64,000 bases of DNA from NCBI RefSeq assembly GCF_003991155.1, contig NZ_CP031293.1. One strand, written 5' to 3'. Position 1 is the first letter of the stretch, and every line of letters begins with the position of its first letter. The translations under genes and the position numbers were made by a program. Below are positions 49,404-49,961 of the stretch, piece after piece. A model generated the notes under the pieces. The model was given only the letters and a program-made list of their open reading frames with translations. It ran no database searches and was not told the origin of the DNA. Origin of the DNA: Escherichia coli. Its GTDB lineage: Bacteria > Pseudomonadota > Gammaproteobacteria > Enterobacterales > Enterobacteriaceae.

Positions 49404-49961
49404 CTAATTTATTGGTGGTCCGGAAGACTTTCTGTCAATCATGTCTTTTCGACATGTAGCCAGAAAGTCTTCCGGACCACCATAAATGTGGACACCTTTA
49501 TCAAGATATTCCTTCGCTTTCTTACAATCTACCTCAACATACTGACCATTGGCGTACATCATGCCCAACCTGGACCATGCTAAATTCACACCGTATTGCG
49601 CGGCCTGATTAAATAGTGCATACGCTTTGGCATAATCCACCCGCACCAGCTCACCGTCGTAGTAGATACTCCCCAGCGCTAACGGAGCTTCTCTATCACC
49701 GTGTTTAACGGCTAACTCAAACCATTTAATCGCTTCCTGAACATCAGGTTTGGTATCAAAGCGAGGCTGATAATATTCCCAGCCTAACAGGCTCTGCGCG
49801 TCGACATCTCCCAATTCAGCCATTTTATGCAGTCTATTTATAACATCGGGCGCAGGTTGACCACCGTATATGCTGTCATACAATTCATGCGCTTTCTCGC
49901 TTGCCACCACGCATGGTGAAACTATTAGCATTAAAGAAAATAATATTCTTTTAGTTAACAT
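49404..49961 (-). CDS. Secreted Sel1-repeat (TPR-like) protein, 185 aa, possibly 3'-disrupted
   Basis: Start at ATG 49959-49961 with SD AAAGG; signal peptide MLTKRILFSLMLIVSPCVVAS; three Sel1-type repeats (AQSLLGWEYYQ...AIKWFELAVKHGDREAPLALGSIYYDG...AKAYALFNQAAQYGVNLAWSRLGMMYANGQYVEVDCKKAKEYLDKG). The last 23 codons are encoded by a perfect palindrome. Confidence 0.75.
   Translation of the reverse strand: MLTKRILFSLMLIVSPCVVASEKAHELYDSIYGGQPAPDVINRLHKMAELGDVDAQSLLGWEYYQPRFDTKPDVQEAIKWFELAVKHGDREAPLALGSIYYDGELVRVDYAKAYALFNQAAQYGVNLAWSRLGMMYANGQYVEVDCKKAKEYLDKGVHIYGGPEDFLATCRKDMIDRKSSGPPIN
49413..49482. repeat. 70-bp palindromic element: 22-bp perfect inverted repeat (49413-49434 / 49461-49482) with a 26-nt loop containing a nested ATGTC/GACAT palindrome
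   Basis: TGGTGGTCCGGAAGACTTTCTG ... CAGAAAGTCTTCCGGACCACCA read directly. Lies inside the 3' end of the Sel1 ORF; no adjacent T-tract. Confidence 0.85.

Follow-up and report, generated by a model that had tools for sequence, protein, structure and literature searches.

A perfect 22-bp inverted repeat in a truncated Sel1 gene of Escherichia coli, probably the scar of a template-switch mutation

The Sel1/TPR locus and its parts

The window analysed here, a stretch of 64,000 nucleotides of Escherichia coli DNA, carries in order the cyoABCDE genes (+ strand), genes for a TacA-family antitoxin and a GNAT acetyltransferase (48224-49061, + strand), a Sel1/TPR gene (- strand), and yajR, yajQ and panE. 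The segment 48158-50100 between cyoE and yajR, which holds the TacA-family (DUF1778) antitoxin, GNAT acetyltransferase and Sel1/TPR genes, is found in ~1,370 of 5,426 complete E. coli genomes (about a quarter), and the flanking cyo and yajR regions are found in 5,424; this islet is a variable accessory insertion between cyoE and yajR.

At the 3′ end of the minus-strand Sel1 ORF (raw ORF 49404-50021) lies a perfect inverted repeat, to which an earlier note made from the sequence alone had drawn attention. That note placed the palindrome correctly within the 3′ end of the gene but took it for the last 23 codons; it spans approximately codons -25 to -3 of the truncated ORF and is followed by two sense codons (I, N) and the stop. 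The note is also right that one frame gives way to another at this point, since an ORF at 49117-49398 (- strand) starts directly below the palindrome. The parts of the locus are listed below in window coordinates; positions in intact alleles are those of locus L001.

49117-49412, - strand: out-of-frame remnant of the gene, corresponding to ancestral residues 216-311 (KLGEVANLRVTF...AIEQKW)
49404-49961, - strand: truncated Sel1/TPR frame, with a signal-peptide-like N-terminus, three Sel1 repeats, 178 native residues, SSGPPIN and a stop
49413-49419: short match 1, TGGTGGT, of ancestral type; pairs with ACCACCA at 49476-49482; one putative switch junction
49420-49428: putatively templated insertion CCGGAAGAC, the sole new bases; replaces 100 bp (L001 1871-1970)
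49429-49434: short match 2, TTTCTG, of ancestral type; pairs with CAGAAA at 49461-49466; the other putative switch junction
49435-49460: 26-nt loop, unchanged coding sequence of ancestral type with a nested 6-bp stem; same in strains EC332 and IAI39, not inverted
49461-49482: right arm CAGAAAGTCTTCCGGACCACCA, coding sequence of ancestral type; its minus strand encodes GGPEDFL; putative template for the new left arm
49467-49475: template segment GTCTTCCGG within the right arm, the exact reverse complement of CCGGAAGAC (9/9 bases)

Geometry and stability of the inverted repeat

The two arms (49413-49434, TGGTGGTCCGGAAGACTTTCTG, and 49461-49482, CAGAAAGTCTTCCGGACCACCA) are 22 nt each, are 100% complementary and are separated by a spacer of 26 nt, TCAATCATGTCTTTTCGACATGTAGC; a repeat search thus returned the 22-bp perfect arms and 26-nt loop of the earlier note at identical coordinates. 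A nested palindrome read there as ATGTC/GACAT is also present, but its stem has 6 bp and not 5 (CATGTC at 49440-49445 with GACATG at 49451-49456). No close inverted repeat in the 64-kb window is longer than this one. Its occurrence is not attributable to chance, because only ~4e-7 perfect 22-nt inverted repeats (spacer ≤120 nt) are expected per 64 kb and arm matches numbered 0 over 100 shuffles of the window. A search for the arm across the 64-kb window with up to 3 mismatches recovers the two arms only. A donor in direct orientation, acting by gene conversion, was rejected for want of a third arm copy in the window.

Folding of the region, which had been proposed as a check, was run with the sequence treated as single-stranded DNA and predicts a very stable hairpin on both strands, at -32.8 kcal/mol (z = -11.4) for the + strand and -34.9 kcal/mol (z = -13.9) for the - strand. 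In the mRNA, a stem of this stability (-33 to -35 kcal/mol) would form immediately ahead of the new stop, and this is one argument for a hairpin selected for function, whether as an operator bound by protein, as a site of recombination or as an RNA element (3′ stabiliser, attenuator). The regulatory scans argue the other way. There is no U-tract and no terminator call: an intrinsic terminator, which the earlier note already considered atypical here, was rejected on account of the missing T-tract after the stem on either strand and a terminator scan without a call, and a promoter role was rejected likewise, the hairpin not being called by the terminator/promoter scan. A permissive Rfam 15 scan of 49000-50400 gives no match that reaches its gathering threshold, the best being MIR5229 with 44.2 bits against a gathering score of 80 (49400-49518, - strand). 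The sub-threshold Rfam matches on the hairpin are plant miRNA-precursor and sRNA look-alikes, a generic effect of any long perfect stem.

Between the divergent genes yajQ and panE, at 52429-52476, the window has a second perfect inverted repeat, whose 18-nt arms (TATCCCTTAATTGTGCAT and ATGCACAATTAAGGGATA) are 12 nt apart. The three other strains checked (A30, IAI39 and strain 20) have it unchanged, in contrast to the Sel1 hairpin, and on this evidence it may be a site conserved for a regulatory or structural role.

Comparison with intact alleles

The pseudogene status of the gene is already flagged in RefSeq. In the annotation of strain 2016C-3878, which is identical to the window here, 49117-49961 is an 845-bp ‘frameshifted’ pseudogene; the intact form appears in RefSeq as a 936-bp, 311-codon ‘tetratricopeptide repeat protein’. 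Alignment of the two forms places the change precisely. The window is identical to intact alleles through 49419 (L001 position 1870), ending ...TTGGTGGT, and rejoins them at 49429 (L001 position 1971) onward, starting TTTCTGTCAATC...; between these points exactly 100 nt (L001 1871-1970) are exchanged for 9 nt (CCGGAAGAC), a net change of -91 bp. Apart from this event and one SNP (A85V), the window gene does not differ from the IAI39/EC332 allele.

With 91 bp lost on balance, the Sel1/TPR gene goes out of frame after residue 178, so that the product consists of 178 native residues followed by SSGPPIN and a stop. This frameshift is therefore the reason why one frame ends and another opens at the palindrome: the second is the stranded C-terminus, and the frame 3 translation of the remnant reproduces the end of the 311-aa protein exactly. 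As to what the protein has lost, Pfam recognizes three Sel1 repeats only, at residues 54-155 of the intact protein, and an NCBIfam search of the intact protein gives only weak, sub-cutoff TPR-type matches; neither result has a bearing on the hairpin. For the C-terminal ~135 residues (about 175-311; L001 1568-1970, - strand), which are lost from the window's product, neither Pfam nor NCBIfam has a matching family; they make up an uncharacterised domain of a protein whose N-terminus resembles a signal peptide.

Polarity of the change is given by the spread of the long form. The 100-bp segment and the open 311-codon frame are kept in alleles of 99.9% (IAI39, EC332), 97% (E. coli B) and 89% (strain 2017-02-2CC) identity and, because alleles at all three distances keep the 100 bp, sequence comparison makes the 311-codon form the ancestral state and the junction the derived one. 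The palindrome itself is missing from the homologous Sel1 genes, which were examined for an in-frame copy and have none, in agreement with the earlier view that it is unlike ordinary coding sequence. The right arm is unchanged in EC332 and IAI39; E. coli B departs from it at 1 position and the 89% allele at 2. In this last allele, the complementary matches are mutated (TGGTTTT, CATAAA, ACCAGCA), hence hairpin potential is not conserved.

Three features of the alignment bear on the origin of the new bases. First, the 9 nt of CCGGAAGAC agree at 9/9 positions with the reverse complement of GTCTTCCGG in the right arm, for which the chance probability is 3.8e-6. Second, both flanking matches (TGGTGGT/ACCACCA, 7 nt, and TTTCTG/CAGAAA, 6 nt) already exist in the ancestor-type sequences of EC332 and IAI39. 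Third, the order of these elements before the event can be read from the same alleles: TTTCTG lay 26 nt to the left of the right arm (CAGAAA-GTCTTCCGG-ACCACCA) and TGGTGGT another 100 nt to the left. When the minus strand of the ancestor is folded, the lowest-energy structure predicted pairs TTTCTG with CAGAAA around the nested 6-bp stem, which is the primer-template arrangement that an intramolecular switch would require; at -10.8 kcal/mol (z = -2.8), this fold is weak next to those of laboratory reporters.

The same comparison bears on the proposal that the gene took up a small mobile or dispersed palindromic element of the MITE, REP/BIME or ERIC-like kind. What speaks for such an element is appearance only, namely a compact and perfect inverted repeat at a frame break, whereas 48 of the 70 nt (loop and right arm), together with both left-arm short matches, are ancestral coding sequence that all intact alleles have. 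Moreover, 9 nt are new and 100 nt are lost without target-site duplication, and the ‘empty’ alleles are 91 bp longer instead of shorter, which is at odds with a clean insertion. Copy number agrees, with one copy per genome in the 49 genomes that carry the junction (see below); in the search for dispersed copies that the earlier note had called for, made with the 1-kb region and the 51-nt junction in 5,426 complete E. coli genomes, this locus is the only one recovered. At blastn sensitivity, an 86-nt version of the element has no match in a phage collection, and in a plasmid collection only its ancestral part is matched, in chromosome-sized records. The idea of a MITE-like insertion, raised in the earlier note, is refuted by the allele comparison (100 bp replaced by 9 bp) and the single copy, and a mobile origin in general is extremely improbable.

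Other length variation is found in this gene. Within the deleted 100 bp (L001 1871-1970), a 12-nt perfect palindrome, CCGTGATCACGG, has a copy of a 9-nt direct repeat, ACGGGTAAC, on either side. In strain A30 (NZ_CP092500.1; L004 2743-4000), an IS3-family element interrupts the Sel1 gene with a 3-bp GAC duplication at L001 2033-2035; this insertion, 9-11 bp to the right of the right arm, is an independent inactivation of the gene. Isolate CE20 (NZ_CM188248.1; L005) has a 9-bp in-frame deletion (GCTTTCTTA), equivalent to L001 2058-2066, that leaves a 308-aa product and brings to three the independent length variants seen within about 60 bp of the hairpin region.

Distribution of the derived junction

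A megablast search of 5,426 complete E. coli genomes with the segment 49050-50100 as query finds the Sel1/TPR locus in 1,369 of them, as a rule once in each. In most of these 1,369 genomes, the match is split in two pieces and is 91 bp longer, and nearly all have the intact 936-bp form. The derived junction was sought with a 51-nt probe that spans it and is unable to seed on intact alleles. It is present in 49 of the 5,426 genomes, where it is always single, chromosomal and matched at 100% identity. Several continents are represented among the carriers, and the sources are humans, cattle, poultry, dogs, wild birds and wastewater.

These numbers bear on two rival explanations. Perfect hairpins are known to arise in libraries, so that an artefact of sequencing or assembly such as a fold-back chimera could be thought of; but the same junction occurs in 49 complete genomes that were sequenced independently, by different laboratories and with varied hosts and countries of origin, which excludes an artefact. 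As regards a hairpin selected for function, its persistence in two sub-haplotypes of the lineage counts in favour. Against this stand its absence from ~96% of the genomes that carry the gene, complementary matches that are unconserved in the 89% allele, and its coincidence with the loss of the reading frame; since all 49 copies are identical over the 51-nt junction, they hold no variation from which selection could be read. Taken with the regulatory scans, this makes a selected functional hairpin very unlikely, and the protein-binding or recombination site suggested in the earlier note is unsupported, the hairpin being absent from >96% of gene-carrying genomes.

Haplotypes were ranked with an 11-kb query (44000-55000). 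The 49 junction carriers are exactly the 49 best matches to it (at least 99.8% identity, in one aligned piece), and the next best, CE10 and IAI39 at 99.3%, have the gene intact. The carriers divide into two haplotypes: one of 41 genomes with a rounded identity of 100.0% (38 of them reach the top score, and three fall short of it by a few bases), and one of 8 genomes at 99.8%, of which the two that were read (L008 and L010) are mutually identical and have 17 differences from the window. Fourteen of these 17 differences fall at 53084-54559, >3.6 kb from the hairpin, and both haplotypes share the local variants that separate them from IAI39. A single origin is preferred because the carriers share their local haplotype and the differences cluster more than 3.6 kb away; recurrent, independent origins were considered and are disfavoured on the same grounds. 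The parsimonious reading, based on the similarity of the 11-kb haplotypes, would be one event, passed on by descent and perhaps also moved by recombination. The literature assigns three carriers to ST457, namely CREC-544 (PMC9860340) and MRY15-117 and MRY15-131 (PMC5430464). The mutation arose on the IAI39-like allele and today resides in an ST457-related lineage.

A template-switch origin of the hairpin

The ancestor-type and descendant sequences, the templated 9 nt, both short matches and the frameshift are all directly seen. Together they have the signature of template switching, because the new bases are a reverse-complement copy, short matches lie at both ends and an imperfect repeat has been made perfect. 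The palindrome is very probably the scar of a single quasipalindrome-type template-switch mutation (Ripley model), without evidence of a selected function. The event, as reconstructed from extant alleles, would have been a single one during DNA synthesis. Template switching is an established mechanism in E. coli (PMC7202029, PMC5941160), and the creation of perfect stems by it in one step has been described (PMC8794818).

In general terms, the growing 3′ end would leave its template at one of the short matches during DNA synthesis and would copy the arm in the reverse-complement direction, over 9 informative bases. The template for this would be the nascent strand itself, folded back at the TTTCTG/CAGAAA mini-hairpin, or else the strand on the other side of the fork. 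Re-entry on the original template at the other short match would follow, with 100 nt skipped. The outcome would be the replacement of 100 bp by CCGGAAGAC and a perfect 22-bp inverted repeat in one step. Two routes can be written. In route (a), which is intramolecular, the nascent minus strand would copy the right-arm region, the loop and then CAGAAA, which would fold back onto its own TTTCTG in the manner of the predicted ancestral minus-strand fold; extension along itself through GTCTTCCGG-ACCACCA would follow, and ACCACCA would re-anneal to TGGTGGT on the original template, 100 nt ahead. In route (b), which is intermolecular, the nascent plus strand ending in TGGTGGT would pair with ACCACCA of the plus-sense strand across the fork, copy CCGGAAGAC-TTTCTG and return at CAGAAA. 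The two routes are equivalent for the observed scar, and fold-back during break repair would leave an identical one. The palindrome and direct-repeat structure noted above in the deleted 100 bp could have stalled synthesis ahead of the switch.

Replication direction was considered from base composition. On the + strand, GC skew is negative in 6 of 8 bins of 8 kb, and its running sum goes down to -0.25 across the window. The fork therefore runs from high to low coordinates, with the minus strand as the leading nascent strand, a direction in keeping with the position of cyo on the E. coli map. This is suggestive only of route (a) as a leading-strand event; E. coli reporters are known to respond more strongly on the leading strand (PMC7202029).

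A path in two events leads to the same end product: a plain 91-bp deletion, which would leave an imperfect repeat (TGGTGGTggcGAAGAgTTTCTG), followed by correction of that repeat through four point mutations or a second short switch. The ancestral 9 bases beside TGGTGGT (GGCGAAGAG) do agree with CCGGAAGAC at 5/9 positions, and a plain deletion would yield an 18/22 quasipalindrome, that is, a classical substrate for correction. However, the two ends of the 91-bp deletion share no direct-repeat match, it is very improbable that four independent substitutions would all happen to perfect the palindrome, and the path calls for two rare events where one suffices. The junction of the plain-deletion intermediate (AATTTATTGGTGGTGGCGAAGAGTTTCTGTCAATC) occurs in 0 of 5,426 complete E. 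coli genomes, an absence that cannot prove a single step. On balance, little credence is given to the two-event path, and a single template switch is retained as the preferred explanation. In form, this event is a complex deletion with a templated insertion and not a textbook correction, since one switch spans 100 nt on a match of 6-7 nt.

Significance

For a specialist, the Sel1 hairpin is unsurprising and reveals no new system; the mutational origin of the hairpin is a new natural instance of a known mutation type. Its interest lies in being a clean and reconstructable natural example, in which one event would have removed 100 bp, written 9 bases, built a 22-bp hairpin and pseudogenised a gene, with the ancestral allele still extant in sister strains (IAI39, CE10). 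It indicates that long perfect inverted repeats in bacterial genes can arise without a mobile element or selection, and this calls for caution in genome scans. On the practical side, the 51-nt junction is a single-locus marker for the ST457-related E. coli lineage.

Departures from neutrality can be imagined in three forms: loss of the C-terminal domain of a secreted Sel1 protein, selected in the globally spread ST457-related lineage, an mRNA stem that serves as a 3′ stabiliser or attenuator, or an ancestral sequence that is a recurrent hotspot of template switching. That any of them applies is judged quite unlikely; a recurrent hotspot, if true, would be usable for measuring template switches in the wild.

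Comparison with known systems

Small size and hairpin potential are common to the Sel1 palindrome and the REP/BIME, ERIC and MITE families. These elements are multi-copy, mostly intergenic and cleanly inserted, whereas the Sel1 palindrome is single-copy, intragenic and made of the gene's own sequence.

Quasipalindrome template switches arise during DNA synthesis, at a rate that varies with strand, 3′ exonucleases (ExoI, ExoVII) and replication stress. The mechanism was reportedly first proposed by Ripley in 1982, and Glickman and Ripley are said to have described in 1984 lacI deletions with end points at quasipalindromes. In such palindrome-associated lacI deletions, as in the Sel1 gene, the end points are joined by hairpin-forming sequence; the Sel1 case adds a templated 9-nt insertion that extends the palindrome.

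The closest likeness in mechanism is to the quasipalindrome hotspots of E. coli (thyA, rpsL, and lacZ QP5/QP6) studied in the Lovett, Sinden and Maki laboratories (PMC7202029, PMC5941160). In these hotspots as in the Sel1 gene, the neighbouring arm is copied exactly, as its reverse complement, into the new bases, short complementary matches mark two switches, an imperfect repeat is made perfect (in the Sel1 gene probably in one step) and a frameshift results. They differ in scale: what is corrected at the classical hotspots is a handful of mismatches or a 4-bp indel, in a compact ~18-bp repeat, whereas the Sel1 event started from a prior repeat of 6 bp (plus the nested 6-bp stem), with the 7-nt match 100 nt off, and lost 100 bp. 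They also differ in setting, the classical hotspots being known from laboratory revertants and the Sel1 case being a natural allele fixed in a wild lineage.

The four-switch-point model of Löytynoja and Goldman, and the work of Mönttinen and Löytynoja in 2022 (PMC8794818), derive a long perfect reverse-complement repeat from one event, as is proposed here. The stems treated there are, as here, hard to reach by point mutation and are inferred from the comparison of ancestor and descendant. Those studies concern RNA genes and eukaryotic genomes, where stems may be kept for their function, whereas the Sel1 hairpin lies in a bacterial protein-coding gene that has been inactivated.
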